From the NCBI GenBank assembly GCA_963815195.1, contig CAWFGE010000010.1, positions 454,857 through 518,856 on the forward strand: a stretch of 64,000 bases of DNA, in the 5' to 3' direction. The notes beneath the pieces were generated by a model that ran no database searches, had not been told where the DNA came from, and saw only the letters and a program-made list of their open reading frames with translations. Source of the stretch: an uncultured Planctomycetaceae bacterium. Its GTDB lineage: Bacteria; Planctomycetota; Planctomycetia; Planctomycetales; Planctomycetaceae. The position numbers and the translations under genes were made by a program. This document shows, piece after piece, positions 7,801-29,326 of the stretch (positions are counted from its first letter, which is position 1; each line of letters begins with the position of its first letter).

Positions 7801-9977
7801 TGTTCCGGCAGTTCGACGACGGCACGATGGCCGACCGGGCCTTCGGGCTGATCGATGGCTTCTTGGACGGCATCAATCCCTTCAATCAATGGATCAGCGT
7901 CCCTGACATCGGACCGGTGTTCGGGCACGTCGAGGATTATGCCTTCTCGAAAACCGTGGGCACGTTTGCCGGCGTCGCCACGGGCATCGCCATCTCGATG
8001 ATGGGGCCCGGGCTGGTCTCCTGCGGCACGTTCGCCCACAAGGCGATGGTGGCCTGGGAAGTGGCCGACGCCGTGGGCGGCATCGGCGGAGCCGTCCAAA
8101 ACATCTACAACAACGGCGGCCAGGTCGGCGTCATGGACGCCCTAGCCATCGCGGGCGGCGTTGTCTCCATCGGCGGTCTCAAGGGCCTGATGAATAAGTG
8201 CTTCGTCGGCGACACGGCAGTCGTTTATGACCAAGAGGACATCTTCACGGCTGTCGCGGCGCCCGAGCGCCAGGCCGCCGACGCTCCATGGAACCTGAAC
8301 TCGCTCATCCTTGGCGGCGGTTTACTGATGGGAATGGGGGCCGGTTGGTTCCTCGCGACCCGCAGGCGACTGGCTGCCCACGAGGAACCGCTTCGTCGCA
8401 AGAAAAAGACCGTCTTGGAGTTGTTCGGCGACCCGCAATTCCTCGATCGGCTCTGGCTGCCGCCGGGCGTCAAGCGGCCCTTGCCGGCCTTCGCCTTGCC
8501 CGGCGCTGCGAACTGTCATAGATTGATGGATGATTGGCCTTCACCTGCAATGAACGCAGTCCCGCCACTTCCCAAGGAGCCGCCCGTGCCGGATGTTGCT
8601 GGCCCGAACTCCGATGTTGCTGGCCGGAAAGAACCTGCTCCTCGGAAGGAATCCGTTTTGAGTTCGCGCCGCTTCGGTTGGCTGATGATGCTGATCTGCC
8701 TCTTGGGCAGTGGGCTGTGCTTCTGGCAGGCGTTGCCAGGCGTGTTCTTGTCCGCTTCCCCTGCTGCAGTTCAGGCCGGCCCTCCGCCGGAACGCCAGAC
8801 GAAGCTCTTGACCCGCAAAATCCGCGACATCCGCCCGGGCATGCGCGTCCTGGCCGACAATCCCGAACTCGCCGACGAGGTTGTGGAGCCGCTGGACATC
8901 GATCCCGCCCAATGGCGACTTGTGACGCTGGAGACGGCCAAAGCGGATGGCAATGTTCTCACGGTCGAACTGCTCAGGCCTCATGGGGAATTGCTGCTGG
9001 CGATTGTGGCGGCGGAGCGCTTGGAGGATCGAAAATCGTCACTTCCCGATGTGATCGATTTGGCATGCAGCGTCCGACCGACGATCAAGACGCCGGTGCG
9101 ACTCTGTCAGGGCGCGGCTTTGCTGCCGGCGATTTTCCAAGAGATGGCCGCCGCCAAAGCTCGTTTGGATCGCGGTGAGCCGATTTTCGCCGCCGTTTCC
9201 GAAGATCACAACTTGATCCGCCGAACCTTGCACCTCAACCTGCCGGAAATGGGCGCGGTCGGGCCGGCAAGAATCACCGCAGTGGCTCCCTGCCCGCCGA
9301 TCGAGGAGGGCAAGGGCCGAATCGTTACGGGCCGGTTTATCCATCAGGCCGCAAACGTCATCGACCTCAAAATTAGCGGCCTCGACGATCCCATCGGCAC
9401 GACCGACACACACCCCTTCTGGAGCGAAGACCGCCATGCCTTCGTTCCCGCGGGCGAACTCCGCATTGGCGAAGAGCTCCGCAGCCTCTCCGGCGAGAAA
9501 ACCTACGTCCTCGCCAAAACCCCCCGCGGGCCGCCGGAAGACGTGTTCAACCTCGAAGTGGAAGGCGAGCACGTTTATTACGTCGCAGAGAGTGGAGTTA
9601 TCGTACACAACATGTGTGCGGATAAGGCAGGAAAAGGTGTAAAATCCTGGATCATGCAAGGTGCCGAAAGTGACAAATACTACAACGAATTATCGCGAGC
9701 TGAAAAGTTACTATATATGCGAGGGCAAAAAACATTTAGCGGTGGTTTTTGGAAGAAAAACAAGGACGTATTAGAAGCCTTCACAGCCGGCAAGACTGGT
9801 CGTGAACTTGTCCAGGGAATTGTTGAACGAGGAAAATGGTTGAAAAAATTTCATCCAATTAGAAGTTCCAGTCTAAATATAATTGACTTCTTTCGAGGAA
9901 TCGGAACCACAATTAGTTCAGGCCCCGATCCGGCTAGTCGCAAGATCCTAATGTGGCTATTCCGTATTAAAGAATAG
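3..9977 (+). CDS. Giant secreted polymorphic toxin precursor (5'-partial): Ig-like repeats, Ser/Thr/Asp-rich stalk, pre-toxin Hint domain, C-terminal toxin tip
   Basis: Frame is open from nt 3 (NGDQAADAVAE), so it starts upstream. Repeated ~110-aa units with E(F/Y)DxxGDG and GDW.xFxF; Hint motifs KCFVGDT (Cys 8199), TTDTHPFW, VFNLEVEGEHVYYV, IVHN (ends 9611); AT-richer tip follows. Confidence 0.9.
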   Translation, partial: NGDQAADAVAEVDSYDLTFTYDFASVLTYGDATVYLRAVELDADGQVVTTGDWQEFQFTYVEQDDPDPTNDADPNSAVLTSVTVDQATADLVQLSGTVDNVNGGTAAAVEFDVDGDGTPDAEAATTNDAFTQQFTTEVGYGDEVVVRVRTRDVDDGTGDMLYGAWQPVGFSRDYPVNDPPLITQLGLANDTDTPDDNITSDATVIGTISHADGSLEGNTIEYDLNGDDIYDGTVITDASGQFTIDLNSAGLDDGAVSLRVRSREWDSARKEQLHSDWSTLDFQYTGAAARLPSLSGLALANDTGTAGDGVTSDPTIAGTFVSGTAALSQTGVEIDLNGDGVPDDRFLTVDPGTGSFTVDLSDYLSTSGPVTVDLRASGWDDAAQEALQGDWVEFTFTYEAPPPATAQVTDLALVNDTGTVGDGITSDPRISGKVTHPSESVSGASVQYDLDGDGAYDGETTADGRGRFSIDLTDASLALGSVTVAVRAGVWSAAELGDVWGDWASFTFTLEAAATPTRPEVTQLQLLDDDDGDGTVSRATISGTVTDGDSAVQLLPVEFDVDGDGTAEGRIYTDTTGSGNFLVDLTPFLQGDGARTVYFRAAESDTDDSTFGDWASFSFTFQAASDTSQDDLVDDNPVPFTSTDLSHVQYETGDLGIGLTVENTDSTTAGTFASGYVQVGSVVGTSDLLAAIADADISEDTPTNTSDSTTDANGNTTDVAQTGTWQRTVTTITDQATGEWYRYENVVQTYDTVTDYTAADGSGYDFHQWGTYGYTLTAYGYNGNAVYTLVEYRTDNYENQQWTAADPNTLFVITGSQSDDVESGGYVKVNDDGLAAPGSTTSWSSQVDTVDPTIGTYSYAASAYGRLEYTDSTGSGSVDTNGEYSDSWSQTYSSEADTPAGSGTTLTEVFSYHSVHDDPYDITNQVNVNETTNLGGVSRTTVIDETTTLTGAKTDTFDSSGTRTTYADGTYESAITQTSTREMHDTYNYNGTRTYTVADNSDPNATVNEYSNSTGTATRQRDVVQVYGATTTRLVDGTQTVAGTVDGNTSSSYSESGGQDLNSDGTSDDGTTVMSFSTTGTTHTSANGTYLMVTTGTFGTAGKDITNTYDTTEAGSSDWNYTAQGNRDSSQDDGAGNTSLSGGTSSSTNDGNTSYSNTMHVDEHVTDAGVTSTGTMNHTGNGNGSSSYDDTEYNTTTTATGTTGNSSSSYNDSSNYGNGSGTWTSTSTGTGTITNGQADYTQTDTRDENGSFASGNSNTFTSHSESDDGYRTETNDSSGGSKYDETGTYSSSTTDTTHSAPAGDSSSSSSTYSKQADTTWSSNSKTSNTIHEDYSSEDYPGSGTYESWHDESHSGSSTDSGSGNYSLSESANSSTAADGTSTSSTDSSYNSSGSGTTTTSGSDTITDHSHSDDNNGVTSTSDRTSSITRSGTTTYQNTANGTSNETDGASSSTDSTSSVSDTTSTVHTQSDTVQDSDDTNASDKATSDSHSESHATDDTTTTSHEETGSVNQQFADGTSASQTTDSGSSDSTGTFTTSTSADSTRDDLGVMLGITSHVAKSSSSNSTGDSTSHSDWDDEQDTYADGTWSTSSSSSGNSTVNTTGDSSATDDANRTDASTSTTKTSTTHAHTATTNAKRSVTSNWSSDSTNGSAGGTTVSWSTEDVTDSGDVESDSNSKVRAEKDADNFSQTYNEESKNGSYNLTGSSRDDRFADGTTSSTSTLTRTETGTSTRKEENTGKSKQVSHPQPGLTQTLTSDQDDTSNWTDITYTDTYSLNTDDPVDAPLTSTEITSHTESGKQSWNSTDNGGSSLTGTVNNPDDPDDESNGTVFNSSSSSTTTEVGSGDYSDSDTTTVKVDNGVETTTGSGSDSLDGNSTLTTTGNSSGSITQNRKIGDTTVNFNQTSSSNSKGTVLTKIDDSSSFETDGKGGTKSTTKSSPTTSGFSTSSSTKTTTVTMTKSGYNFTKTEQDIDKSTGSFDANLSHTIDTDFDGTTTHSGGGSSTTKSWSLSKNTVNSTTFEKKTALYSTWKGYYNQVVTYNQLDQTTTKSDGNASLTYQTDGTETWGGTQTDQKDIIHDKKKTTTRIDNVTQAKTNRDFDGYEEDYKKTSGSFTEDKTHEENHSKTKHQIQSDGSLDAGEDVLDPDIKAAIIEKHEKAGSSDTETWDEKSSPSSGVGVMENWKHVQNTDGTDKGYIYWSKGSGDFYREYYDKTGVSETIDNYKYERKVFTATETSTETIHDDSTSSSGSSESKIVTPTGDPNSPIDTQEWTKTFNTREDTYHHANNGTRTNTYQGEMTPYEGTISYDDTTKSDWDWTYDRHEKYDGSESQQRPAGSDTATAKVDSTWDLTVDYHGTWDDTENINSTSATDNSTMSITNTSHEEATIHGVANVTYSAQYDISGLNDDQNPPVVTPVGDPQPVATWSWVEDWTGKANSTGSATIEHYMQDYTWDEATQTYTTTWESKDFGGSWSDNESYHFSASDSDPNGTENSPPGTYSSNMDNADFLSSYMYIYMDHFYTRSPDVGNGRSADYTDFKSDVDMAAYEPTMDSYSFTLFASLDPSWIDQLAISLYDAFQENFPELSNLISSTWEYASFFASDLFRQFDDGTMADRAFGLIDGFLDGINPFNQWISVPDIGPVFGHVEDYAFSKTVGTFAGVATGIAISMMGPGLVSCGTFAHKAMVAWEVADAVGGIGGAVQNIYNNGGQVGVMDALAIAGGVVSIGGLKGLMNKCFVGDTAVVYDQEDIFTAVAAPERQAADAPWNLNSLILGGGLLMGMGAGWFLATRRRLAAHEEPLRRKKKTVLELFGDPQFLDRLWLPPGVKRPLPAFALPGAANCHRLMDDWPSPAMNAVPPLPKEPPVPDVAGPNSDVAGRKEPAPRKESVLSSRRFGWLMMLICLLGSGLCFWQALPGVFLSASPAAVQAGPPPERQTKLLTRKIRDIRPGMRVLADNPELADEVVEPLDIDPAQWRLVTLETAKADGNVLTVELLRPHGELLLAIVAAERLEDRKSSLPDVIDLACSVRPTIKTPVRLCQGAALLPAIFQEMAAAKARLDRGEPIFAAVSEDHNLIRRTLHLNLPEMGAVGPARITAVAPCPPIEEGKGRIVTGRFIHQAANVIDLKISGLDDPIGTTDTHPFWSEDRHAFVPAGELRIGEELRSLSGEKTYVLAKTPRGPPEDVFNLEVEGEHVYYVAESGVIVHNMCADKAGKGVKSWIMQGAESDKYYNELSRAEKLLYMRGQKTFSGGFWKKNKDVLEAFTAGKTGRELVQGIVERGKWLKKFHPIRSSSLNIIDFFRGIGTTISSGPDPASRKILMWLFRIKE
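8199..9611 (+). other. Pre-toxin Hint (bacterial intein-like) domain with large insertions, including two TM helices
   Basis: Cys1 in CFVGDT, TxxH (TDTH), terminal HN followed by Met-Cys; 471 codons; TM segments at ~8295-8357 and ~8673-8750. Confidence 0.85.
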
Positions 9978-10493: not shown

Positions 10494-10811
10494 TCATCGG
10501 GCAACCTCCTGGCGCTTTGATTGTCGAGCCGCTTGGCGGCGCTGGCGGGCTTCTTCCAATTTGCGGTTACGTTCGGCAAAGATTTCTTTTTCGATCCCGG
10601 CGAGTTTGTCGCTGGGTGTGACATACCCGATGGCCGAGTGCAAGCGGACGTTGTTGTAATGCTCGACGTAATTTTGGATTCGCCTTTGAGCTTCCTCCAA
10701 GCTGGCGGGACAGGTGACCCGAATGCACTCCGACTTGAGGCTGCCGTGCCAGCGTTCGATCTTGCCGTTCGATTGCGGGTAATAAGGACTCGTCCGCACA
10801 TGGGTTGCTCC
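10494..10811 (-). pseudogene. IS3-family transposase C-terminal fragment
   Basis: THVRTSPYYPQSNGKIERWHGSLKSE...YNNVRLHSAIGYVTP, the end of the integrase core. Confidence 0.85.
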
Positions 10812-10895
10812 TGTCGGAGAACCCGAAGGTTTACGCAGTTACGGAACCCGAACTGTTACGCACCGATTTCCCCCAAGCGCGGTGGCTTTGGGGGC

Positions 10896-10927
10896 TTGAA
10901 AATCCCCCGCGCGCGGGGGATTTTCAA
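10896..10927. repeat. Perfect 32-bp palindrome downstream of istB
   Basis: TTGAAAATCCCCCGCG|CGCGGGGGATTTTCAA. Confidence 0.9.
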
Positions 10928-10954
10928 ATTTTCTGACCGGGCCGGGGGCTTCGC

Positions 10955-11872
10955 CTATTCGCCCGGTCTGGATGCTCCCTCGGACCTTGCCGAGTCGGAA
11001 GCGGGCCGAGTCGAGTCCCGAACCGGTTCCTTGGCCGAAGTCAGCGACGTGATCGACCGTTCGCCAAGTTGAGCATCTAACTCTTTCAATCGGTAGCTGC
11101 GGCCTTGGATGTTGAGCACGGTTGCGTTGTGAAGCAAACGATCCAAAATCGCGCCCGCAAGAACCTCATCATCCGCCAGCACGCTGGGCCAACTGGCAAT
11201 CCCTTTGTTCGTCGTGATCGCAATCGAAGAGCCCTTCGCGTAACGATAGTTCACAACGCGGAACAACAGATTCGCACTTTCGCGATCCAATTGCTCATAA
11301 CCAAACTCGTCGAGGACCACCAAGTTGGAGGACATGTACTTGCGGTGCTTCAAACGGGCCGGGCTCAATTCCGCGTCCTTGCGCAGCTGATGAAGCAGTT
11401 CCTCCACGAGATAAAAACTCACCGAGAAACCCGTCTCGATCGCACGGGTCGCCAGCGCGACAACCAGATGCGTTTTTCCCACACCCGGCGGTCCTTGCAG
11501 CAACAATGCCCCGCCATCCCGAATCCACTGGCCGGTCCCCAGCGTTTCGATTTGACTCCGCGAAACCGACGGTTGGAAGGCGAAGTCGAAGTTCGCAATC
11601 GTGGGTCCCGTGGGCAAGTGGGAAATGCGAAGCGCTTGAGTCACGCGTCGCTCTTCTTGACGTTCCAGCTCCAATCGCAACAACGCATCCAGAAACGCGC
11701 CATAACTCTGCTGACTCTTCACAGCCGCCGCGATCAGGTCGGGAATCGCTTCGGCCGCGAAGGTCAATCGCATCGCCTCCAGGCGTTCGCTCAGGGCCTC
11801 CACATCTTCCGTCGGTTTCGGGCAGGGCAAAATCCCCGCCGCATGCAGGCGTCGTGTTTGGGCAATTCTCAT
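10955..11872 (-). CDS. istB: IS21-family helper ATPase IstB
   Basis: FDFAFQPS, Walker A GPPGVGKTHL, Walker B LVVLDEFGY, ITTNK, AILDRLLH, GRSYR. Confidence 0.95.
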   Translation of the reverse strand: MRIAQTRRLHAAGILPCPKPTEDVEALSERLEAMRLTFAAEAIPDLIAAAVKSQQSYGAFLDALLRLELERQEERRVTQALRISHLPTGPTIANFDFAFQPSVSRSQIETLGTGQWIRDGGALLLQGPPGVGKTHLVVALATRAIETGFSVSFYLVEELLHQLRKDAELSPARLKHRKYMSSNLVVLDEFGYEQLDRESANLLFRVVNYRYAKGSSIAITTNKGIASWPSVLADDEVLAGAILDRLLHNATVLNIQGRSYRLKELDAQLGERSITSLTSAKEPVRDSTRPASDSARSEGASRPGE

Positions 11873-12014
11873 TGGGCCACCTCCGCCAGTTGCGCGTAAA
11901 TCTCAATCGAGCGCAGCTGAACCGGCAGCGATGCGATCTCGTTCAACTTGCGGGCCATCTGCCCCAAAGGTCGCGGGGCTACAACGTCATCGGTCTCATC
12001 CCCCTCGTAGCACG
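11869..12014 (-). pseudogene. istA: IS21 transposase IstA C-terminal remnant
   Basis: Reads ...VQLRSIEIYAQLAEVAQ*, with its stop overlapping the istB start. Confidence 0.65.
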
Positions 12015-12455
12015 GTCATCGACTCCCGCAACTCCCAGTGCAGGATCGCCCGACGGCAGCCATCCAAGACGCTGGTCAGGTAATAAAACGTGCCTTCGAT
12101 GTTGATGTAAGACACATCAATGTGCCAGTGTTCGTGGGGTTTTAAAGGCTGCACGAACCCCGTGCCTTTCTTGGAGGGCGAGAACTTGCCCTGGTCCAGA
12201 CGCCGATTCGCTTTGAGTACGCGATAGACCGTGGCCGGGCTACAGGCGGCCACGTCCTCATCGAGCATCATGAACGTCAATCGGCGATAACCTTCCAAGG
12301 GATGCAGGTCATGATAGTCCAAAATCGCGGTCTTCTCCCAGTCCTCCAACCAGTGGTCTCTGGGGATCTGGCCATTGTGCTCGTTGGCCTTTCCATAGCG
12401 ATTCTTCCACGAGTGAAACTTGCTCGTTCCCAGTTCCAACCAAGCCAAAAGTTTT
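12014..12455 (-). pseudogene. IS3-family transposase N-terminal/central fragment
   Basis: GYRRLTFMMLD, SPATVYRVLK, HEHWHIDVSY, YLTSVLDG. Confidence 0.85.
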
Positions 12456-12500
12456 GCCTCCTCACCAGAATCTGTGGGTGAACTCTGGTTCGGGGAGCTT

Positions 12501-12664
12501 GGCGAACACGCTGCTGCAAAAGCCAATGACCGCGCCGGTGGGGAAGCTCACGTTGATGCCGAGCTTGCTGTAATCGCCCACGAGCATACCCACGAACATT
12601 TCGCCGGTTTCGACGGGTTGGCCGTTGATGGGCACGCGCACGGTGCCGTAGGTGTTTTTGAGAT
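12501..12664. repeat. 164-bp direct repeat, copy 1 (fragment of the nucleotidyltransferase gene; att-like)
   Basis: Matches 28211-28374 with 6 mismatches, all synonymous in the minus-strand reading frame. Confidence 0.95.
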
Positions 12665-12675
12665 GACTCGTCCAG

Positions 12676-14199
12676 CTAACCGCCATATTGCTGGTCGGCA
12701 TAGAACGCTTTCACGGCCACGAGCAGCGCGTAGTTGGTGGCGTGCAGGGCATCGTCGGGCTGAGTTTCGGGATGGCTGTAGCGGATGGTGCGGTTCTCGT
12801 CGTCATATTCGGCAACTTCTGCAGCGAACTCATCCAGGTAACTGCCCGAGTCCTCCCAGCGGGGAAAAAGGATCTGTTGCTTTTTGACCCGCGAGAGCAC
12901 GACGCCGAGGCTCGCAGAGCGGTTGACGGTCCATTTGGTTAAGATCCCGTCGGCGCGGGGCGGATGATCGGCTGCGGAATACAAGATCGCATAAAGCCCA
13001 CCGGGACTCGTGAGCCGGTCCAGCAGCAAACGGTTATAGACATGGCCATTCCCGCCGCCGTCAGCGGCAATCAGGGGGACGCGGAATTGGGCACACCGCT
13101 GGGCGACAGCGCTTAAGATGTGGTTGGGATCTTCCGTTGCGGCAAATCGCTCGAAACGGCAGATTTGGAAGTGAAAGTCCGAACGCATGTAGCCGAGAAC
13201 GAGGACCGTCCGCGACGTGCCACCGCCGCCCCAATCGATGCCGGCCACGAGATTCCGCCGGCCCAAGTGAGGAATCTCCTCAAGTGACTGAGCCATCGGA
13301 ATCTCGCGGCAGCAAGCCTCGAGTTCCGCGCGGGTAACGACGTGATCGCCGGTGGTTGTGGATAGCCCTAAGACTTCGTTTTTGAACTTCGCGAGATCGT
13401 AACTCCGCTGCCGCTCCAGGATCTCGTCATAGTTGAGCCAAGGCACCATCGGGTGGCAAATCCAGTAGCCGTCCCCCCAACTCGCCTGGGGATTACGGGA
13501 AACCCAGCGGCCGGATGAGGGGTCGAGCGGCGCGGCGCAGTCGGGGCAGCGAAGGCCGTCGGGTCCCAGGCTGTGTTCATCGAGTATGACGCCCCTTTGG
13601 CAGACGGGGCAATCCAGCGTCCACTCGTGGGCCATCGACTGGCGAAACATCGATTCTAAGTGGTTGTCGACGGACTTGGGCGTGCCCGTCAGGATCGTTC
13701 GGCCGTTTTCGGCGTGGCTCAAGGTCTCCTGCAGAACGGGCAAATCGCCCTCCGCCACGTCTTGGAACTCGTCCACCAGCAGCAAATGGGCGCTGAGTCC
13801 CCGGCAGGAATCGCCCGAGTGGTAGGCGGTGCGCAGGTGGACCGCGGAGCCGTTGGCAAACTGCATATTCATAACCTGCGGCTGCCGGCCTCGGCGACCC
13901 AGAAGCTGGCGGCGGATCAGGGGACTCTGATTCAAGGACGGCAACAAGCGGATTTTACTGAAGACATGGGCCTGTTCGATCCGCGGGCACACAAACAGAA
14001 TCTGCACGCCGGGATTTGTGCAGGCTTCGTAGAGGATCGTGTTCACGAGAAAGGTGCTTTTTTCCGTCTGGCGGCTGCACCTGAGAACGAGGTTCCGCCC
14101 CGCCCTGGCATAGATGGCGGGCAAATACGGCCGGCCCTCAAAGGAAATCAGCGAGCGGTTCAAAAACACGAACCGCTCGCAAAACGTAAGCTTACTCAT
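12676..14199 (-). CDS. Phage terminase large subunit-like ATPase-nuclease (GpA-like)
   Basis: Walker A-like SRQTEKST, Walker B LLLVDEFQD, GTPK, CPVC/CPDC Zn site, FKNEVLG, RNase H-like acidic motifs AGIDWG, AADGGG, DDALHA. Confidence 0.85.
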   Translation of the reverse strand: MSKLTFCERFVFLNRSLISFEGRPYLPAIYARAGRNLVLRCSRQTEKSTFLVNTILYEACTNPGVQILFVCPRIEQAHVFSKIRLLPSLNQSPLIRRQLLGRRGRQPQVMNMQFANGSAVHLRTAYHSGDSCRGLSAHLLLVDEFQDVAEGDLPVLQETLSHAENGRTILTGTPKSVDNHLESMFRQSMAHEWTLDCPVCQRGVILDEHSLGPDGLRCPDCAAPLDPSSGRWVSRNPQASWGDGYWICHPMVPWLNYDEILERQRSYDLAKFKNEVLGLSTTTGDHVVTRAELEACCREIPMAQSLEEIPHLGRRNLVAGIDWGGGGTSRTVLVLGYMRSDFHFQICRFERFAATEDPNHILSAVAQRCAQFRVPLIAADGGGNGHVYNRLLLDRLTSPGGLYAILYSAADHPPRADGILTKWTVNRSASLGVVLSRVKKQQILFPRWEDSGSYLDEFAAEVAEYDDENRTIRYSHPETQPDDALHATNYALLVAVKAFYADQQYGG

Positions 14200-14581
14200 C
14201 GTCGGCGCCGTCCTTCAGAACCAGGGCGATCTGCTCTTGGGTGAGGATCGGTTCTAGCATGCTGAGGATGTCGGGATTCTGGCGCGCCAGTTCCAAAACG
14301 TCGGCGTTCGAAAGCCCGGCCTCGCCGGCGCGGGTTTGGGATTTCTCATGCTGCTTAAGAATCTCCTGGTAGTTGGCCCGGATGGCATTGGCCTGGGCGG
14401 GCTTGAGGATCCCGATCGCGATCAGGCCCGGCAACTGCGCGAGAGCCCGGAGACACTCCTGCGTATCGGGAATCGGAGACGCGCCGCGGCTCTGGGTCTG
14501 GCGGGTTTTCTCTCCTTTTGCTTTTTCCTTGGGCTGCGGCGAATCCTCACCGGCGGGCCCGGGAAGCGTGAGTTGGGACAT
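14192..14581 (-). CDS. Small helical hypothetical protein coupled to the terminase-like gene (small-subunit position)
   Basis: GGAGG RBS before ATG 14581; stop overlaps the terminase start by 8 nt; 129 aa. Confidence 0.7.
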   Translation of the reverse strand: MSQLTLPGPAGEDSPQPKEKAKGEKTRQTQSRGASPIPDTQECLRALAQLPGLIAIGILKPAQANAIRANYQEILKQHEKSQTRAGEAGLSNADVLELARQNPDILSMLEPILTQEQIALVLKDGADDE

Positions 14582-14766
14582 TACATCCTCCGTGAAATGG
14601 AATCGAAAACGAACAGCTTGAGTCAGGATCAACACGCCTGACTCAGGGTGAGTCTGCGAGACGGACTGCTTGGATCCTTCGGGATTTCCCGGTATTTTCG
14701 GGTGTTTGGCTCGGGCATCGATGAAGGAAGACCTCTGTATGATTTGTTCAAGTCGGCACACCTCGC

Positions 14767-15602
14767 TCAGGTATTTCTCGATTGATAAAAGTGCTGATCA
14801 AGTCCCGCCAAGAGTTCGCCGGCGTGCTCCGTCGTCATCGCCCCGCGAATTTTTTTGGCGAGGCTTCGTACTGTCGTCGGGCGGGTCATCTTAAGTTTTT
14901 CGGCCAGCTCGGCCGTGCCCATTGTCGGCTGCCAAAGCAGCCAGCGAACCGCATCGAACCACGTGGTCAAGGCGAGCGGCGACCGGGCCATGACCGTGCC
15001 GGACCGGAGCCCGACTTGACGATTGCAGTTTTTGCATTCCCAACTCTTCCTGTCCGCAAAATAGTAGCCGTCGGCCGCGCCACAGCGGCACGGTCGTTCG
15101 CCCCGGCGGAAGCGGTCCGCGAGATAGGCTTCGCAGGCCGCTTCGTCGGGGAACGGCGGAGGGCACGTCGATCCATCGCTGGCTTCCCGCTTTTTCCGGC
15201 GGGCCTGAAGCTCTTCGAGCTTGCGCACGCGCGATAAAATGCCCGGCTGTGACCGAGAGCCTGCCGTTCGGAACGCTCGGCCGCCTCGGTCGACATCGCC
15301 CCGGCGAGGACGGCATCTTTCGCCTCGACATCCGGGAGGATTGTCCATTCCAAGGCTGGGAGCCTTAGAGCCGCGTGCCGCTCGATGGCCTCCGACGCCA
15401 CGCCCCATCGCTCCATCGCCGCCGCCTGCCGCGCCATGTCCCCCACGATCGCGATTTCGGTCGGCCCAACCGGCTGATGCTCCTCGAGAAAAAGACCATG
15501 GAAGTGCAAGGTCCGGTCCCGGCCTAACACCAGCGGCAGATTCCGATCGTCCGACGCAACCGCATCCAAGGTCACCATGTCCATTGCCGAATTGTATGCC
15601 AT
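14767..15602 (-). CDS. Helical domain fused to IS1595-type Zn-ribbon/HTH, no DDE domain (frameshift ~15230)
   Basis: FPDEAACEAYL..R, CRC..WECKNC, QVGLRSGTVM..SPLALTTWF, AELAEKL..TVRSLAKKIRGAM, then stop; N-terminal part (EEHQPVGPTE..RAFYRA) is in the adjacent frame. Confidence 0.7.
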
Positions 15603-15814
15603 CGTTCTTACTCCAGCGCTTCATTCTCGGAACTTGGAGCGGGAGATCGAGCGGACTTTAGGTGGAGTTCGAAAAAAATCCGTCGTGAGGCGAAGAGCCG
15701 GGGAATCGAAGACTAAATTGCTTGCGGTCGCTGGCGGCGACGGCTTGTCCTTAATTTGTCGTCAGGTACGACAGGAATTTCGACGTCGGCCTGCGGAGAG
15801 ACTCTCGTGGACTC

Positions 15815-16417
15815 CTACGAGCCGACGGTGTGCCATTGGATTTTCGTTCCTCCCTCGCGCTGGCGAAACTCGATGGCGGTGAGGCCGTTTTTGAGAGATC
15901 GCAACGTCTCGCGGACCTTGGCTGAATCAAAGCCGCTGGGAGCGGGAACCTGCTCAGGCCAGCCAGCTTGTTCGAAGGCATCTAACACGATCTCGACGTT
16001 GGAGGGTTTTTGGTGCGTTCGAACCGTTCGGATTGCTTCACCGCGAAACCGGATTTGTCCCGCGCTTCGAGCCCACTGAGGGCGATCTTCCAATGGAAGC
16101 GGGGCGTGATCGCCGAGGGCTTCGAACAGCCGCACCGCCCAGCGATCATCCACCAAACGGAGCTGCTGAGCCAAATCGACGGCGGCCACATAGGGACTCT
16201 CAATCCTTCTTATGTGCTGCCAGAGACGGATGGTTCCTCCGTGGCTTTCCCAAGCCGCGGGGAGATCGTCCTCCAGTTGGATCTGTTGATGGCGGGTTAA
16301 GAGCGTATCCCACATCTCTTCAGCCGCAGTGTTGTTGTTGACGCGCAGCACGCACTCTCGCAACTTGGTTAATAGACGTTGCGACAGATTCTCGATGGTT
16401 GGCGAATGACCGAACAT
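15815..16417 (-). CDS. Hypothetical protein with putative C-terminal winged-helix-like domain
   Basis: PQW...IRFRG...NVEIVLDAFEQAGWP pattern recalled from planctomycete hypothetical proteins; ATG at 16417. Confidence 0.6.
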   Translation of the reverse strand: MFGHSPTIENLSQRLLTKLRECVLRVNNNTAAEEMWDTLLTRHQQIQLEDDLPAAWESHGGTIRLWQHIRRIESPYVAAVDLAQQLRLVDDRWAVRLFEALGDHAPLPLEDRPQWARSAGQIRFRGEAIRTVRTHQKPSNVEIVLDAFEQAGWPEQVPAPSGFDSAKVRETLRSLKNGLTAIEFRQREGGTKIQWHTVGS

Positions 16418-17130
16418 ACGATATTCCCTGTCTTGGACTGAGCTCAGGAATGGACAGAATAAACCGCCAGAGCACGTACCCTGCGATTTCCAGACATCTA
16501 CTTCAATTATTCCCTCGGCGGATCCCCTAGGGATCACGAAACGAAGCTCCTCAATTCCCCTTGGCATCTGCGGGTTACCACGTGATCGCGCCGGACAACC
16601 TATTTCAGGGACATGGGTCGCAGGTCCTACTCATGCAGCTTGAATCCGAGAGATTTCAGGAGGGACCCGGGCTTTATTGCGACACTTGAGAATTCTCAAA
16701 CGCGCGGGAGTTCGGGACAGAAGATGCGTTCATCAAGACGCGATCCCAGCACGAACGGCGCACGCCTCCCGCACGGAACGAAATCGGCCTAAATTCGGCC
16801 GATTTTTGCGTCAAGTAACAAGATGACAGCGGTTTAGATCGGGAACACCGCTCCACAAGCCCGTCAATCGACATTTCGCTCTGGTCGATGGCCAATTCTT
16901 CCCATGGACTGGCGAGAAACTTGTCGGCAATCGATCTGAATTCCAGTCGCCAGAGGGAAAGCTGGGCGATGCGAGTCCCTCGCGTTGCTAAATTTCTGCA
17001 GATTCCGGGCATTATCACTTGAGGGAGATCTTACCCTTCGAAGCGTCGTCTCAGTGCTATTCCCGCGATCGGCTTTGGAGGCCATCCGGGATCTCGTTTT
17101 TGGTCAAGGCGGTCGGTCTTTTCTCTCCGC

Positions 17131-17685
17131 ATGAAAAGAGGTAACTCGATGACATCCCGAATTTGGAAAGCCAATTTGCAACCGGAAGATCTCACTGCGG
17201 TCATCGATACGCGCGAAAAGAACCCTTTGGAGTTGTCCCCGCTTTGCGTGGAGCGTCGGAGTTTGGTCACCGGCGATTACACCGTAAAAGGACTCGAACA
17301 TCTGGTGGCGATCGAGCGCAAGAGCCTTTCGGATTTGTTAGCGTGCATTGGCCAGCAGCGGGAGCGGTTTGAGCGGGAAGTCCAGCGGCTGTTGGCTTAT
17401 CCGGTGCGGGCCTTGGTTGTGGAAGCGGCCTGGGCCGAATTGGAAGCCGGGAAATGGACGACATCGCAGGTCACGGCTTCTGCTGCGATGGGCAGTTGCC
17501 TGGGCTGGGTCGCGCGGGGCCTGCCGGTGTTATTGGCCACGGATCATGCCGGGGCTGGGCGGTGCGTTTCGCGACTCTTATGGGTGACCGCGCGCCGCCG
17601 TTGGCGGGAGGACCGGGAACTGATCGGCTCGGCTTTGGACCCGCGGCGAACCGGCTTAGCTCGCCCGACGTTGTGCGAATCGTGA
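17131..17685 (+). CDS. ERCC4/XPF-domain nuclease
   Basis: VIDTRE, GDY, IERKSLSDL, RFERE, LVVEA motifs. Confidence 0.9.
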   Translation: MKRGNSMTSRIWKANLQPEDLTAVIDTREKNPLELSPLCVERRSLVTGDYTVKGLEHLVAIERKSLSDLLACIGQQRERFEREVQRLLAYPVRALVVEAAWAELEAGKWTTSQVTASAAMGSCLGWVARGLPVLLATDHAGAGRCVSRLLWVTARRRWREDRELIGSALDPRRTGLARPTLCES

Positions 17686-17765
17686 AAGCCGGCGCGGACG
17701 TGCGTAGAATTGTTTATGATCAGCTTAAACCGGTTCAACATGTCATTGGGAGGAGAAAGTCGATC

Positions 17766-18495
17766 ATGCCCATGCACGACTGGATGCGGGGATTTTTCAT
17801 GCGTTTCATCACGAATGGATTTCCGAAATCTCGCGGGCTTTGAACCAAAGCCTCTTGCCCGAGGACTACTATGCCCTTCCGGAGCAAGTCGCCGCCGGCT
17901 TCGGTCCCGATGTGTTGACGCTCCAAGGCGAGAGGTCGGACGATCATCAAGGCGCCAGCGCCTCCGATACGACTGTGCGCCGGCGGCGACCGGGCTTCAG
18001 GCTCGTCCCCAAACGCGGTACACCGCCGAGACGCAGTCAGAGTTTGCCCGCAGGAGAAAAAGTTCCGTGGTCGTCCGGCATGTCAGCGGCGATCGCATTG
18101 TAGCGATGGTCGAGATCCTCTCACCCGGAAACAAATCCAATCCGCACGCGTTTCAAGCCTTTGTGGACGAGGTCTCTGAACCGCTCGAGCATCGCATCCA
18201 TTTGCTGATCATCGACCCATTCCCGCCGGGTCCGCGCGATCCCAACGGCATCCACGCGGCGATCTGGGAACAAATTGAGGAAACGTCCTTCGAACCGCCC
18301 GCCGAAGAACCACTGACCGCGGCCTACGAATGCGACCTCACAACCCGGGCCTACATCGAGTCGCTCGCCGTCGGCGAAGTTCTTCCCGACATGCCCCTGT
18401 TCTTGGAACCGAATGCATGCGTGATGCTGCCCTTGGAAACGACCTACCAGGCGGCGTTTTCCGTCATGCCCCGCCGCTGGCAGGCGGTGCTTTAA
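17766..18495 (+). pseudogene. DUF4058-family protein, frameshifted
   Basis: MPMHDW / FHAFHHEW / YYALPEQ..PDV / VAMVEILSPGNK / HLLIIDPFPP / LPDMPLFL spread across three frames. Confidence 0.75.
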
Positions 18496-18528
18496 ATCCC
18501 GCCGGATCGATGACTACGGTTAGCATTC

Positions 18529-19209
18529 ATGGGACTCACCATTCATTACAAGTTGGCATCCGACGCACCGAACCGGGACGCCGCGCGGCGCCTCGTTGAA
18601 AATCTGCATCGCGCGGCCTGCGAATTGCCGTTCGCCGAAGTCGGCGATGTGGCGGAATTCGCCGGCGATGAGGCCGACGATCCGGACCCCGGCGAAGCCT
18701 GGCTGCGCATGCAGTCCGAATATATCCTCGTCCGCGGCGAGCGTGCCGCGTTTATTCCGCCGCTCTATGCGATCGCGTTCACGACTTCTCCCGGTGAAGG
18801 CTCTGAATCCGCCAACTTCGGCCTCTCCCGGTATCCGGCCACCGTCGAAGCGGCCGGGCAGACGATCTCCACCGGCTTGGACCATTGGCATTGGCAATCG
18901 TTTTGTAAGACGCAATACGCCTCGAACCCCAGCGACGGCGGGATCGAAAATTTTCTGAAATGCCATCTGTCCATCGTCCGCCTGCTGGACCGGGCCCGGG
19001 AACTCGCCGTCCTCTCGGAAGTTCATGATGCGAGCGGATTTTGGGACGATCGCAATCTGCCGAAGCTCGTGGAAACCATCGGCCAGTGGAATCGGCACAT
19101 CGCGGGGTTCGTCGGGCGGTTCAAAGACCAACTCGGACACGATTTTGTTGCACCGATCACGGATTATCGGAATTTCGAACATTTGGAAGCCGACGACCAG
19201 AACCCATAG
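18529..19209 (+). CDS. Conserved hypothetical protein
   Basis: MGLTIHY start, PGEGSESANFGL, SFCKTQYAS, FLKCHL motifs; clean 226-aa ORF. Confidence 0.75.
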   Translation: MGLTIHYKLASDAPNRDAARRLVENLHRAACELPFAEVGDVAEFAGDEADDPDPGEAWLRMQSEYILVRGERAAFIPPLYAIAFTTSPGEGSESANFGLSRYPATVEAAGQTISTGLDHWHWQSFCKTQYASNPSDGGIENFLKCHLSIVRLLDRARELAVLSEVHDASGFWDDRNLPKLVETIGQWNRHIAGFVGRFKDQLGHDFVAPITDYRNFEHLEADDQNP

Positions 19210-19274
19210 CCCCAAATCGATGGCCCTCAGCGCCATTTCCATCCTGCGGACTTAACCGGATCTCTTCGTAGATC

Positions 19275-19324
19275 AAACGCCCCTGGATCGATCCTCTTTT
19301 GGATCGGTCTGGGGGCGTTTTTTT
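19275..19324 (+). terminator. Intrinsic terminator-like hairpin
   Basis: AAACGCCCCTGGATCGATCC / GGATCGGTCTGGGGGCGTTT stem followed by a T-run. Confidence 0.65.
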
Positions 19325-19413
19325 GTGCGCTCTCGGCGCGGTCCGGGGGCGGTGTGTTTTTTTGACACGCCGTCCCCGGCGTGGGGGCGGCCCTACTGAA
19401 GGAGGTCGTTTCC

Positions 19414-20070
19414 ATGACCCAACTCTCTTCTCCGATGCCTGCCTTGTCCGCCCCGCCTTCGTCTCCTCAATCGACGCCGTCACGAACACGAACACCATGG
19501 CACGCGGAGTTTCTTCCGATGCTGCCCAGAATCCAAGAGCATGCCAGCTACCACTTCCGCCATTGGCCTGAGGATCTCCGCGAGGAGGCGATCCAAGAAA
19601 CCCTCGCCAATGCCTGCCAGGCGTATGCCCGACTCGCCCAACGCGGGGCAACCGGCTCGGCCACCTGGAGCAGTCTCGCCAAGTACGCCATCCGGCAAGT
19701 TCGGACGGGGCGGAAGGTGGGCGGCTCGCTCAACGTTCGCGATGTGAGTTCCCGCTATTGCCAACGGCACTACGGTGTCTCAGTCCATAATCTCCATCGC
19801 TGGGATGATGAGAATCAGGAATGGACGGAGATGGTCGTGGAAGACCGCCGGACCACTCCCGCTGACATCGCGGCGCTTCGGATCGACTTTTGGGAGTTCC
19901 TCAAATCCCTTTCCCGCCGCCACCGCAAGATCGCGCTCAAACTCGCCAAAGGCTATTCCACATCGGCTGTGGCCAAGATGTTCGAGCTCTCGGCGGCCCG
20001 GATTTCCCAGATCCGCCGGGAACTCGACGATGCCTGGCAAGCCTTCCACGGCGAGCCGGCCTGCGTCTGA
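19414..20070 (+). CDS. Sigma-70/ECF-like protein with C-terminal HTH
   Basis: AAGGAGGT RBS; region-2-like EEAIQETLANA; region-4-like LSRRHRKIALKLAKGYSTSAVAKMFELSAARISQIRREL. Confidence 0.7.
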   Translation: MTQLSSPMPALSAPPSSPQSTPSRTRTPWHAEFLPMLPRIQEHASYHFRHWPEDLREEAIQETLANACQAYARLAQRGATGSATWSSLAKYAIRQVRTGRKVGGSLNVRDVSSRYCQRHYGVSVHNLHRWDDENQEWTEMVVEDRRTTPADIAALRIDFWEFLKSLSRRHRKIALKLAKGYSTSAVAKMFELSAARISQIRRELDDAWQAFHGEPACV

Positions 20071-20159
20071 GCTTTGTCAGCATCTCCCACGCGGTGACCG
20101 ACTTCATCTCACTTCCCCGTTCCGTTCCGGTACGAGCAATCAAGGAGATCCTTTTATTT

Positions 20160-20495
20160 ATGTCGTCCCCTTCCCAAAACGAAACCCATTCTCGAAACGG
20201 CGAGTCTTCAGGCTCTCTGGTCCCCGCCCGTCTTCCCGCGGCAGCTTTGATCTCGGCATTGGAATTCGAGCAGCTCCAACTCGAAGAACGCCGCGAGTCT
20301 CTCCGTCAGAAGATGGGCGAGGTGGAGACGGAATTAGTCCGACTCACGAGCCGGCAGGCTGAACTCCAAAAGCTCGACGTGTCGCTCGATCGCTTGCTGA
20401 AGTATTTGCAGGAGCACAGATCCAATGAAGAACCGGGCAATGCCTCCCAGCCTTGCCGAGGCCTCGCCAATGCCGCCGTCGCCGGCACGTTTTGA
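20160..20495 (+). CDS. Small coiled-coil hypothetical protein
   Basis: Heptad-like LEFEQLQLEERRESLRQKMGEVETELVRL; ATG at 20160 after AAGGAG. Confidence 0.55.
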   Translation: MSSPSQNETHSRNGESSGSLVPARLPAAALISALEFEQLQLEERRESLRQKMGEVETELVRLTSRQAELQKLDVSLDRLLKYLQEHRSNEEPGNASQPCRGLANAAVAGTF

Positions 20496-20571
20496 TTGAG
20501 CCTGTGCCTGCATTGCTCATCCAGAGAACGGCACAAGACCGCGAGCGAACCAGGGGTTGGCGTTCTCCTTT

Positions 20572-20621
20572 GCTCACACGCCGGGAACGTTCTTGGAGCG
20601 TTCCCGGCGTGTGAGCTTTTT
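20572..20621 (+). terminator. Intrinsic terminator
   Basis: 18-bp perfect stem GCTCACACGCCGGGAACG/CGTTCCCGGCGTGTGAGC followed by TTTTT. Confidence 0.75.
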
Positions 20622-20848
20622 AGATCATGAAAAGATTGGCAACAGGATGCCATTTTTTTAGCACTCGGCCGGGATCGATTGTCTCTCGAATGACCGTTTT
20701 TGACACACGGCGTCGCCGAAGCATCGCTGTTCGGCCCCGTTACATGCGATACGCCGTCGGAAGTTTTTCTTGAAAATGGAGCCGAATCGAATGACAATCA
20801 TATCCATATTGATCCTTCCTCTGGCTGCGCTTTAGGATCCTGCTCGAC

Positions 20849-25464: not shown

Positions 25465-25495
25465 TAGCCGGATCTATTTTTCGACGGGGAACATT

Positions 25496-27328: not shown

Positions 27329-27529
27329 TTTTCCATCGTAATTGCCGCCTTCCGCCCACCACGGGAATGTCTCCGTCGCGGCCAAAATGGAAGGTGTGCA
27401 GAGCGGAATCAACCTTCAGTTGAACGGGTTCAAGTTGAGCGCCCGGCGCCGTGGGAATATATCCCTCGGGAGACGATACCTGCTGTATACAGGGAGCGCG
27501 AAAGACGTTCGGCCTGTGGTGTCTTCTTG

Positions 27530-27760
27530 TCAGTCGTCTGCATCCAGCGGGGCGGGTTCGCAGGAGGCGAGGGCGTCGGCAACGAGGCCGGTCCAGTGGC
27601 AGGTTTCGCACTCGCAGGGGGAGTGCTCTTCCCAGACGGATGTGAGCGTTACGGACTCCGTCAGTTGGTATTCATCCGCGGCATGGAAGAACGCGGTGAC
27701 ATAGCCTTGAAGATGGATCTCGATCCTTAAAAGCTGCCCGTGGCATTGGGGACATCGCAT
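27530..27760 (-). CDS. Small Cys-rich putative Zn-binding protein
   Basis: MRCPQC...CECETC, 76 aa. Confidence 0.55.
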   Translation of the reverse strand: MRCPQCHGQLLRIEIHLQGYVTAFFHAADEYQLTESVTLTSVWEEHSPCECETCHWTGLVADALASCEPAPLDADD

Positions 27761-27925
27761 GATTGGCGGTTTCTCAGAAGGTGGCGGTAAAAGGAAATGG
27801 GCGGGCGGTTGGGGGTGCCGGTAGGCCGGAATGGCCATGGGGGAACGGCAGCTTTAGGGATTTGAGAACGCTCCAAAGGAACCGTTCGTCAAACGGCCGG
27901 AGCCAGCGTTGAGGAGGAACCGTTG

Positions 27926-29326
27926 CTATTGTGCGGCCGTTGCAGGGAAGACGTTGTCCGAACGGAATTCCGGATGCTTGAACCATTCGTTGACCGGTCC
28001 CAGTCGGGGGGCGATGGGGCCGGGCGGGGATTCGCGTTTGTCGGCGAGCCGGCGGATTCGGTGGAAGAGTTTTTCCCGTTCCGGAGAGAACTCGCGGCCT
28101 CGGCGGGCCATGACTTTGCGGGCGATCTCCGCTCCGCGGGTCTCGTCGAAGGTGGTCCACTCCTCGCCGTCGATCCACACAAAGCTGGGCACGAATTTCG
28201 GACTTTGCGAGGCGAACACGCTGCTGCAAAAGCCGATGACGGCGCCGGTGGGGAAGCTGACGTTGATGCCGAGCTTGCTGTAATCACCGACAAGCATACC
28301 CACGAACATTTCGCCGGTTTCGACGGGTTGGCCGTTGATGGGCACGCGCACGGTGCCGTAGGTGTTTTTGAGATCGCTGTTGATGCAGTCGGCGGCGATG
28401 TTGACCCAGGTGCCGATATAGCTATGGCCCAAAAAGCCGTCGTGCTGTTTGTTGGAATAGCCGTGGATGATGCTGGCTTCGATCTCGCCGCCGACTTTGC
28501 AGACGGGGCCGAGGGTCGTTCCCGCGTGAATCACGGCGCCGGGTTGGATGAGCGTGCCGTCGCCGATGGACACGGGGCCTTGAATGTAGGTGTGGGGAGA
28601 GATCGTAACATTTTCGCCGATCCAGACCGGGCCGTTCTCGGCGTCGATCACTGCGCAGGGTTTGATGCGGCTGCCTTTTCCCAAGTGCACCGATTCGGGG
28701 GCCAAGAGATGGCTGCCGGGATCGATGCGGGCTTCGTGGGAGGAGGCGTTTCCTGCGTTGGACCAATCCGCGATGAGGGCCCGTTCGTTGGCGTGGATCA
28801 ATTCCCAGGGCCAGCGAAAAAGTTCCACATGTTCGCCAACATTGCGGCGGGGCAAATCTTTCAATTGCTCTTCGAGCAGGTTTTCATTCAAAAAGACATC
28901 GGGGGAGAGCCGGGCCGTCAATTCGGCGTCAGCGAACACGCAGGCGATCTCCTCGTCTTTCCCGGCGACGCCCACCCAAGAGGAGTGCCCGTCTTGGGAC
29001 GCGGGAAGCTGTTTCCACCAGCCCCGGCCGCTTAAAAAGAGAGCGGGGCCTTTGACGGTTTGGTTGATGGGATGCGGCCGGTCTTCCGCTAAGACCGCGG
29101 ACACTTCCTCCCGGCACCAAAGCGATGGGCGGTTCTTCGAGACATCCTGTCCGCGGCCGTTGCCGTTTCGATGGGCCGAGGACGCCGACGCGGATACCAG
29201 CAGCCTCTGGATTTTTTGAAGCAAAGAATCCCGCCCGCAAACGAGTTCAAACGTCGGGCGGATATAGGTCAAAGGCAGCATTTGCTGCCAGATCGAATCT
29301 TCGTAAACCACAATGTTCGGTTGCAT
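27926..29326 (-). CDS. Putative sugar nucleotidyltransferase, GlmU-related with hexapeptide repeats
   Basis: LPLTYIRPTFELVCG, PWELI, hexapeptide region, GGEIEASII, SNKQHDGFLGHSY, NSDLKNTY; directly downstream of glmS. Confidence 0.85.
   Translation of the reverse strand: MQPNIVVYEDSIWQQMLPLTYIRPTFELVCGRDSLLQKIQRLLVSASASSAHRNGNGRGQDVSKNRPSLWCREEVSAVLAEDRPHPINQTVKGPALFLSGRGWWKQLPASQDGHSSWVGVAGKDEEIACVFADAELTARLSPDVFLNENLLEEQLKDLPRRNVGEHVELFRWPWELIHANERALIADWSNAGNASSHEARIDPGSHLLAPESVHLGKGSRIKPCAVIDAENGPVWIGENVTISPHTYIQGPVSIGDGTLIQPGAVIHAGTTLGPVCKVGGEIEASIIHGYSNKQHDGFLGHSYIGTWVNIAADCINSDLKNTYGTVRVPINGQPVETGEMFVGMLVGDYSKLGINVSFPTGAVIGFCSSVFASQSPKFVPSFVWIDGEEWTTFDETRGAEIARKVMARRGREFSPEREKLFHRIRRLADKRESPPGPIAPRLGPVNEWFKHPEFRSDNVFPATAAQ
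28211..28374. repeat. 164-bp direct repeat, copy 2 (inside the intact gene)
   Basis: Matches 12501-12664. Confidence 0.95.

Follow-up and report, generated by a model that had tools for sequence, protein, structure and literature searches.

A conserved terminase-bearing gene trio and its association with large Tn7-like transposons

The window analysed here is a stretch of 64,000 nucleotides from an uncultured Planctomycetaceae bacterium (assembly GCA_963815195.1, contig CAWFGE010000010.1, positions 454,857 to 518,856 of the forward strand), and it contains, at one boundary of an island set in an alternative glmU gene (alt-glmU), three adjacent genes that we call the trio: gene 1, encoding a Zn-ribbon/helix-turn-helix (HTH) protein, gene 2, encoding a small helical protein, and terL, encoding a terminase large subunit (TerL). 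Several lines of sequence comparison indicate that the trio is a real, conserved and undescribed module under purifying selection, and that in related genomes it is often carried by an undescribed family of 70–220 kb Tn7-like transposons that target gyrB, duplicate 4 bp of flank and encode a Ku-like protein. Positions given without a genome or locus label are those of the window; G000 denotes the genome from which it comes, and other G and L numbers denote the other genomes and loci compared.

The trio and its conservation

12676..14199, minus strand: terL, terminase large subunit of the phrog_675/GpA type, 507 aa; intact motifs for the ATPase, the four-cysteine Zn site and the RNase H-like nuclease
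14192..14581, minus strand: gene 2, 129 aa, helical hairpin and C-terminal helices; candidate partner resembling a terminase small subunit (TerS)
14767..15602, minus strand: gene 1, long helical hairpin, IS1595-like Zn ribbon and HTH, without a DDE domain; frameshifted at about 15225–15245

The initial annotation described three co-oriented genes with a translationally coupled terL, and this arrangement, on the minus strand, stands, the open reading frame (ORF) of gene 2 overlapping the start of terL by 8 nt. Window TerL matches Pfam GpA_ATPase (E 1.9e-13) and, across residues 5–492, the terminase large subunit family phrog_675 (E 1.7e-56). The same annotation read gene 1 as a helical, Zn-ribbon and HTH protein of IS1595 type lacking the DDE domain; the domain content and the lack of DDE are as described, but the protein is not one ORF here. 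Its helical half lies in ORF 14967–15602 and its Zn-ribbon/HTH half in ORF 14767–15624, and since the two align to residues 41–144 and 145–293 of a single intact homologue, there is a frameshift near 15225–15245 in the assembled sequence (homologues are about 280–300 aa long). Because the assembly is indel-rich, with rpoC spread over at least five ORFs and 13 of 57 tested orthologue-like genes split, this frameshift may be an assembly error, and pseudogene calls in G000 are unsafe. Frameshifts also split glmS (29413–31246), and those in rpoC lie at G000:C19:19150–23519. A programmed frameshift in gene 1 was considered and rejected, as breaks elsewhere fall at different positions and most homologues are whole.

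The likeness of gene 1 to IS1595 lies in the Zn-ribbon/HTH region and is weak: the Zn_ribbon_IS1595 match has an E-value of 0.0037 in the window and 2.4e-5 in an intact homologue, both below cut-off, and NF033547 aligned at model positions 2–62 of 215 only. No DDE domain was found in 41 aligned homologues, which end about 30 aa past the HTH, and a search of longer proteins, itself a weak one, returned no DDE-bearing form of gene 1.

A protein search with TerL gave 388 matches among 8000 candidates, the best 119 besides the query being 59–79% identical; the names attached to close homologues point to a planctomycete host. Loci were drawn from five database genomes, from metagenomes (80 kept of 118) and from genomes of the phylum (2 of 401) and the order (17 of 398), the last two counts both including the window genome. 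Among the 53 loci with at least 1400 bp of upstream sequence, gene 2 was found in 50, gene 1 in 52 and both in 49, and the order gene 1, gene 2, terL is kept in 49, in a count that is not dereplicated, includes the window and uses profiles made from the same loci. Gene 2 alone forms 497 clusters at 50% identity. The ratio of nonsynonymous to synonymous substitution rates (dN/dS) is 0.05–0.15 for TerL in 15 of 16 pairs (one pair is saturated and several have dS above 1), 0.15–0.66 for gene 2 (13 pairs) and 0.08–0.41 for gene 1 (9 of 10 pairs).

All 20 TerL motif positions checked are nearly invariant across 66 clade sequences. The ATPase residues R43/E46/K47/T49, D143/E144 and G172-T173-P174 are kept in 60–65 of the 66 rows, the rest being gaps except for one K-to-Q change, and the nuclease residues D322, D380, D482, D483 and H486 are conserved in every row covering them and align with those of the phages GBK1 and Andromeda. 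Some copies are damaged: gene 1 is split at seven further loci among 52, and G424, G599 and others have a broken terL. The gene before the trio encodes a MerR-like (9) or XRE (4) regulator or belongs to F19 (3), a gene of unknown family, at 16 of 22 loci; F19 precedes the trio in the window, where other loci have MerR-like or XRE regulators. G000 holds a single copy of the trio.

Carrier transposons in related genomes

Downstream of the trio, unrelated loci share a non-coding array of three GACA-N7-TGTC-like repeats, a spacer and a fourth repeat ending in ...ACCA, after which there are often 2–6 variable bases and then TGGT... with three inverted repeats. A profile of this end matches 24 of 70 real sequences, from which it was itself built, versus 0 of 1400 shuffled ones. 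Once nine duplicate or partial loci are dropped, 61 remain; of these, 20 have the four-repeat end no more than 400 bp from terL and 25 no more than 2.5 kb from it. Among the 31 with at least 2.5 kb of downstream flank, 13 have it there. The end-bearing loci are scattered over the TerL tree, and the window TerL falls in a 99%-supported group with five of them.

Whole-genome searches found lone three-repeat ends at a distance and facing inward, which delimit elements of 96 kb (G599) and of 71, 124 and 218 kb (G404). The three-repeat end follows gyrB in seven genomes (gyrB being identified by Pfam in two and by eye in five), with insertion 10–15 bp past the gyrB stop, and some ends lie at non-gyrB sites (G404 706888, 91318). 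The flanks match over 4 bp in six of eight end pairs, the misses being G401 and G634; a fifth flank base is in some pairs confounded with the T of the next end. Members also occur in tandem arrays with 2–6 nt between ends. The arrays, inverted and of four and three repeats, have the predicted architecture of TnsB sites, and we take the end spacer to contain an IHF-like (integration host factor) site and the layout to resemble that of the ends of CRISPR-associated transposons (CASTs). Examples with TGGT...ACCA ends are:

G599:C1:3964859–4060927
G404:C1:2264453–2459505 and 488880–706888
L201, L202, L203, L208 and L209

Between the ends are Ku-like, TnsA, TnsB, TnsC and TniQ genes, with the Ku domain gene at the head of the tns operon; Pfam TnsA_N, rve with Mu-transpos_C, TniB and TniQ were recognised in G404, G401 and G599, and in G404 and G514 the trio lies back to back with the Ku-tnsA-tnsB-tnsC operon. 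An end is present in 12 of 23 terL-positive versus 7 of 160 terL-negative genomes, a comparison in which the terL-negative count used stricter filters and related genomes are not independent. A TnsB match was found in 9 of the 12 terL-positive genomes with an end and in 0 of the 11 without one, so that 14 of the 23 gave none.

Two other readings of the arrays were rejected. That they are RNA or tRNA finds no support in an Rfam match (none in 6 loci) or in a tRNA at the boundaries. A cos-like terminase site is at odds with lone ends that lie 96–218 kb apart, face inward and have duplicated flanks, and with the occurrence of the same ends without terL.

Further observations concern the contents of these loci. 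In G514:C181 (L057, L142) a short gyrB-like 3' fragment, recognised by eye, follows the three-repeat end and is possibly a captured attachment (att) site. A 531-aa ORF at L183:15480–17072 (G650:C130), about 0.8 kb past an end junction, matches the Cas9 alpha-helical lobe (PF18470, E 1.3e-12). A large serine recombinase with two ParB-like genes lies near the trio at L153:1647–4976 (G443) and L164:12160–15448 (G599) and is probably a separate nested element. A recurrent cassette of the elements comprises DUF2997, a Ycf46-like AAA ATPase and companions that include ThiF (E1-like), Prok-JAB and a small, possibly ubiquitin-like gene; it was seen at the following sites:

L192:3–9585
L169:14447–L170:1486
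L129:8123–16066
G000:C15:278336–286291

A swappable accessory module

The similarity of the ends tracks that of TnsB (rho 0.76, p 0.0002, eight genomes, cross-contig linkage being assumed in five) and not that of TerL (rho 0.06, p 0.27, 26 loci), and TnsB and TerL show no co-variation with each other (rho 0.21, p 0.19, n=8). Since the ends co-vary with TnsB, TerL is probably not their transposase, and the suggestion in the initial annotation that TerL does the cutting or mobilising under the guidance of the Zn-ribbon/HTH protein is not supported: the ends belong to elements with a separate TnsABC-TniQ set. Ends without terL mostly hold, in the same slot and often behind an XRE gene, another three-gene module (proteins of about 385, 170 and 150 aa) for which we found no family or structure match; by eye, its large protein may contain a worn DnaG Toprim region. 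This alternative module was seen at:

L001:15453–17450 (G000:C10:420453–422450)
L196:16305–19216
L198:14772–16717
L225, L226 and L228

Judged from these arrangements, the trio appears to be a regulated, swappable accessory module that stands behind a MerR/XRE regulator just inside a TnsB-type end.

Viral relatives

The nearest TerLs on viral contigs are 26–34% identical to those of the clade (33 loci) and those of cultured phages 23–27%; in GBK1 and Andromeda the portal gene directly follows terL. Clade TerL forms one side of a 100%-supported branch in a quick tree of 76 rows. Given that viral relatives are only 23–34% identical, the trio does not seem to be a decayed prophage. Neither of the outcomes that the initial annotation named as refuting, closest homologues in complete prophages or a gene trio that is not conserved, was observed. 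The test proposed there, whether the gene order recurs without portal or capsid genes, had a positive outcome (49 of 53 loci): none of 124 downstream genes at 51 partly redundant loci (125 were listed and one excluded) belongs to a head, tail or connector family, and the genes there vary between loci, being host-like, insertion sequence (IS) or toxin-antitoxin genes.

The PHROGs control for this result was weak, with 36 neighbours of viral TerLs yielding two head-protease matches and no portal, so a divergent portal could be missed. Profiles made from the recurrent neighbours of viral TerLs and from GBK1/Andromeda head genes found nothing relevant in the trio loci or in G000, and an HK97-type portal occurs in 3 of 23 terL-positive genomes, in none of them near the trio. 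The presence of gene 1 and gene 2 in viruses was assessed within 34 distant terL loci only. On the environmental viral contigs with the nearest TerLs (L096–L126, up to 196 kb), genes resembling those for RNA polymerase beta and gyrase B are among the neighbours, and the portal of these contigs was not matched by Pfam or PHROGs. Solved structures gave no sequence match to the TerL or alternative-module profiles.

What the terminase may do

The model of gene 1 shows a long helical hairpin, a Zn ribbon and an HTH (predicted local distance difference test, pLDDT, 85), and that of gene 2 a hairpin with looser C-terminal helices (pLDDT 72). Neither gave an informative fold match, only generic helical hairpins being returned; the best viral row for gene 1 is a 125-aa protein (E 4e-4). 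Gene 2 occupies the position usual for terS. Of the multimer modelling that had been proposed for the trio, the pairing of TerL with gene 2 gives weak support, its score being 0.52 against 0.00 for the best control, where 116 of the 157 solved pairs and 2 of the 215 mismatched ones attain the mark for such scores and values of at most 0.60 comprise 18 of the 157 and both mismatches. Runs of this pair agree in at least 80% of contacts, with partner pLDDT of at least 72.

We tentatively favor the hypothesis that the trio serves satellite-like packaging of element DNA into the heads of helper phages. In a fuller and more doubtful form, the giant Tn7-like family would have exchanged plasmid hitchhiking for a captured terminase, packaging itself into large helper phages and then transposing into gyrB. 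When a large helper phage infects the cell, gene 1 would bind a site on the element, gene 2 would act as a TerS-like adaptor, and TerL would cut element DNA and pump it into an empty head of the helper. Once the linear DNA has reached a recipient, the Ku-like protein may guard it while TnsABC-TniQ insert the element after gyrB. The terminase route would thus replace the plasmid route that TnsE provides to Tn7. The sizes of the elements, 71–218 kb, are near those of the largest viral contigs carrying the nearest TerLs, which we count in favor of packaging. No coupling protein or VirB4 matched inside elements of five genomes, nor was a virion gene found in them (52 selected ORFs), which leaves their route between cells unexplained.

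Several observations weigh against packaging. No helper phage, pac or cos site or packaged DNA was found, and the spacer between gene 1 and gene 2 shows no motif common to distant loci. Past its last nuclease motif, TerL has a short tail (median 26 aa, n=63; viral relatives have a median of 56.5 aa, range 21–66, n=24), and C-terminal TerL tails dock on the portal in some phages. The TerLs of viral contigs are all at most 34% identical, so that no matching portal is available. Gene 2 has no TerS family match and no significant TerS fold match; its nearest named atlas cluster is T5 TerS with a score of only 0.80, a lead. Of the 31 loci with 2.5 kb or more of flank, 18 have no transposon end downstream, and as other elements hold an unrelated module in this slot, spread does not depend on the trio.

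Among the other explanations, an anti-phage module, in which the terminase would jam the portal or TerS of an invader or cut its concatemers out of register and the element would not be packaged, is unlikely, though the most probable of them. Tn7-like elements are rich in defence cargo (PMC8649781), the nuclease is intact while the TerL tail is short, and the trio is also kept where there are neither tns genes nor ends (genus g304, G000, G424, G283), with selection acting on those end-less copies (pairs L134/L136, L134/L137 and L050/L138). Freely placed cargo would not be expected to occupy a fixed place inside one end behind a MerR/XRE gene, however, and a protein that looks as sequence-specific as the Zn/HTH one is hard to fit with the jamming of varied phages. 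Somewhat less probable is a second transposition pathway, in which the trio would mark phage DNA or DNA ends for TnsC, or process donor or replicated element DNA, in a role comparable to that of TnsE or Cas effectors in other elements. Tn6022-like elements have remote TnsE homologues near the left end, distant from the core genes (PMC10293859), and I-F3 CASTs are regulated by Xre proteins and V-K CASTs by a MerR-type repressor (PMC11406308), parallels that speak for such a pathway, as do the ends at non-gyrB sites in G404 and the back-to-back arrangement in G404 and G514. The missing co-variation of TerL with TnsB speaks against it, as do the 14 terL-positive genomes without a TnsB match, and a full DNA-translocating ATPase with a nuclease exceeds what targeting needs.

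That TerL is itself a transposase or integrase guided by the Zn-ribbon/HTH protein is very improbable. Its RNase H-type acidic residues are kept, and the window island has no recognisable recombinase and places the terL stop 11 bp from the junction, yet the ends track TnsB and not TerL, the same ends flank elements with the alternative module and no terL, the glmU junctions differ in position, a second island ends likewise without the trio, and G000 has one trio copy. We give still less weight to a functionless remnant of a prophage or gene-transfer agent. The split of gene 1 in the window and at seven other loci of 52, the broken terL genes and the weak PHROGs control, which a divergent portal could escape, would fit decay; against this stand purifying selection and the 497 gene-2 clusters, the locus-specific downstream genes free of head, tail or connector families, and the failure of phage-neighbour and head-gene profiles to match the loci or G000, the HK97-type portals of three genomes lying elsewhere.

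The glmU island of the window

12501..12664, minus strand: displaced internal alt-glmU fragment (the boundary repeat), cut off by IS3/IS21 remnants at 10494–12500
15815..16567, minus strand: F19 gene upstream of the trio, which it precedes in 3 of 22 other loci
17131..17685, plus strand: ERCC4-type nuclease, island gene
19381..20070, plus strand: Sigma70-like HTH gene that recurs across this island family; three contig copies, 85–96% protein identity
20849..25464, plus strand: cargo kinase-TIR-STAND-FGE gene, in two frames
27530..27760, minus strand: small Cys-rich gene 3' of glmU; host gene in the same-genus empty-site genome, triplicated on this contig
27926..29326, minus strand: full alt-glmU (TIGR03991), host gene at the opposite island boundary; contains the repeat copy 28211–28374

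The terL stop does lie 11 bp from a boundary repeat, as first described, namely a 164-bp direct repeat (12501–12664 and 28211–28374, 96% alike), but this is a fragment of alt-glmU. A further glmU copy lies upstream of the window (C10:418452–419015), and as the two displaced fragments begin 117 bp apart, the repeat is not a simple att core. Three glmU 3' parts with the small Cys-rich gene, 80–96% alike, separate stacked islands at G000:C10:418004–484182, a region that includes 12501–29326 of the window, and the glmU site is empty in the same-genus genome G423. The second glmU island of G000 ends with the alternative three-gene module and has no trio. Among the window-island ORFs scanned there was no portal, capsid, tail or recombinase gene, in keeping with the initial annotation, nor was an integrase or primase family recognised. 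One 151-base record, which may come from the source sample, crosses the terL/glmU junction without differences; low-depth contigs from three DNA runs of one study list no joints and leave the gene-1 break uncovered.

The end profile found no transposon end in G000, and TnsA/B/C, TniQ and Ku gave no match there, the genome being 94.6% complete; from this we infer that the window copy most likely lost both. It is thus most likely a descendant stranded on a glmU island. The unequal glmU fragments (92–96% identical) may have arisen when DNA of related strains was integrated by homology, or may be left from a deletion that removed an integrase. Elsewhere in the window, a 3316-aa Thr/Ser-rich protein (27–9977, plus strand) with a Hint-like region and a variable tip at its end looks by eye like a polymorphic toxin; it lies within a 23-kb insertion that has IS remnants on both sides and splits the middle glmU copy.

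Relation to known systems

The carriers share with Tn7-like elements (Tn7, Tn6022, I-F3 and V-K CASTs) TnsA, TnsB, TnsC and TniQ and asymmetric end repeat arrays. They likewise use a fixed att gene, accrete in tandem and hold a regulated accessory module close to one end. Unlike Tn7 they have an att site after gyrB, TGGT...ACCA termini, a 4-bp flank match, a Ku-like gene and the terminase module, whereas a 5-bp target-site duplication is described as characteristic of Tn7 and all its relatives (PMC11406308). The window copy itself has no Tn7 parts.

Phage-inducible chromosomal islands (PICIs), Staphylococcus aureus pathogenicity islands (SaPIs) and PICI-like elements (PLEs) are likewise integrated elements that hold packaging genes but no virion genes, a helper being presumed in our case. 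They encode TerS or a factor that binds it and rely on a borrowed TerL, whereas the trio includes TerL itself. PICIs and capsid-forming PICIs (cf-PICIs) are integrase-based, have a primase-replication module and att sites and are below about 20 kb, whereas the carriers of the trio in relatives are DDE elements of 71–218 kb; PICI/SaPI/PLE satellites are given as about 20 kb or less (PMC12595487). The cf-PICIs and tycheposons have terminase genes of their own on the island, as the trio does. The former also encode portal and capsid and the latter a capsid protein with TerS, and such portal or capsid genes were not found in the trio islands. The I55 island, a larger island selectively packaged by the large jumbo phage JPTI55 (PMC12595487), is a precedent for the packaging of large islands; the text of that source mentions neither terminase nor Tn7.

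The TerLs of GBK1 (Geobacillus) and Andromeda (Bacillus), both phrog_675, have the same Walker A variant (RQ-x-EK), Walker B and GTP motif, and the same four cysteines and nuclease Asp/His residues, as clade TerL; they differ in their 23–27% identity, in the portal that follows directly and in tails about 20 aa longer. Gene 1 is weakly like IS1595 transposases in its Zn-ribbon/HTH region and unlike them in lacking DDE, in its extra N-terminal helical hairpin and in its single copy.

Implications

In the literature searched we found no report of a terminase on Tn7-like elements, though supplements of key papers may list such cargo; PMC8649781 and PMC10293859 do not use the word terminase in their main texts, and PMC11656645 has it in a figure legend only. 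A 2021 survey (PMC8649781) names one Planctomycetes host species. The carrier family appears to be new in its own right, as judged by its gyrB att site, 4-bp duplication and Ku-like gene. Whether the trio packages DNA, acts against phages or opens a second pathway, a complete TerL would act without a portal of its own, a role that we did not see in the literature searched. These findings bear on how large islands that lack conjugation genes pass from cell to cell. If the packaging hypothesis is true, the terminase-bearing transposon would join the target selection of Tn7 with phage satellites, in a hybrid that moves 70–200 kb of cargo.

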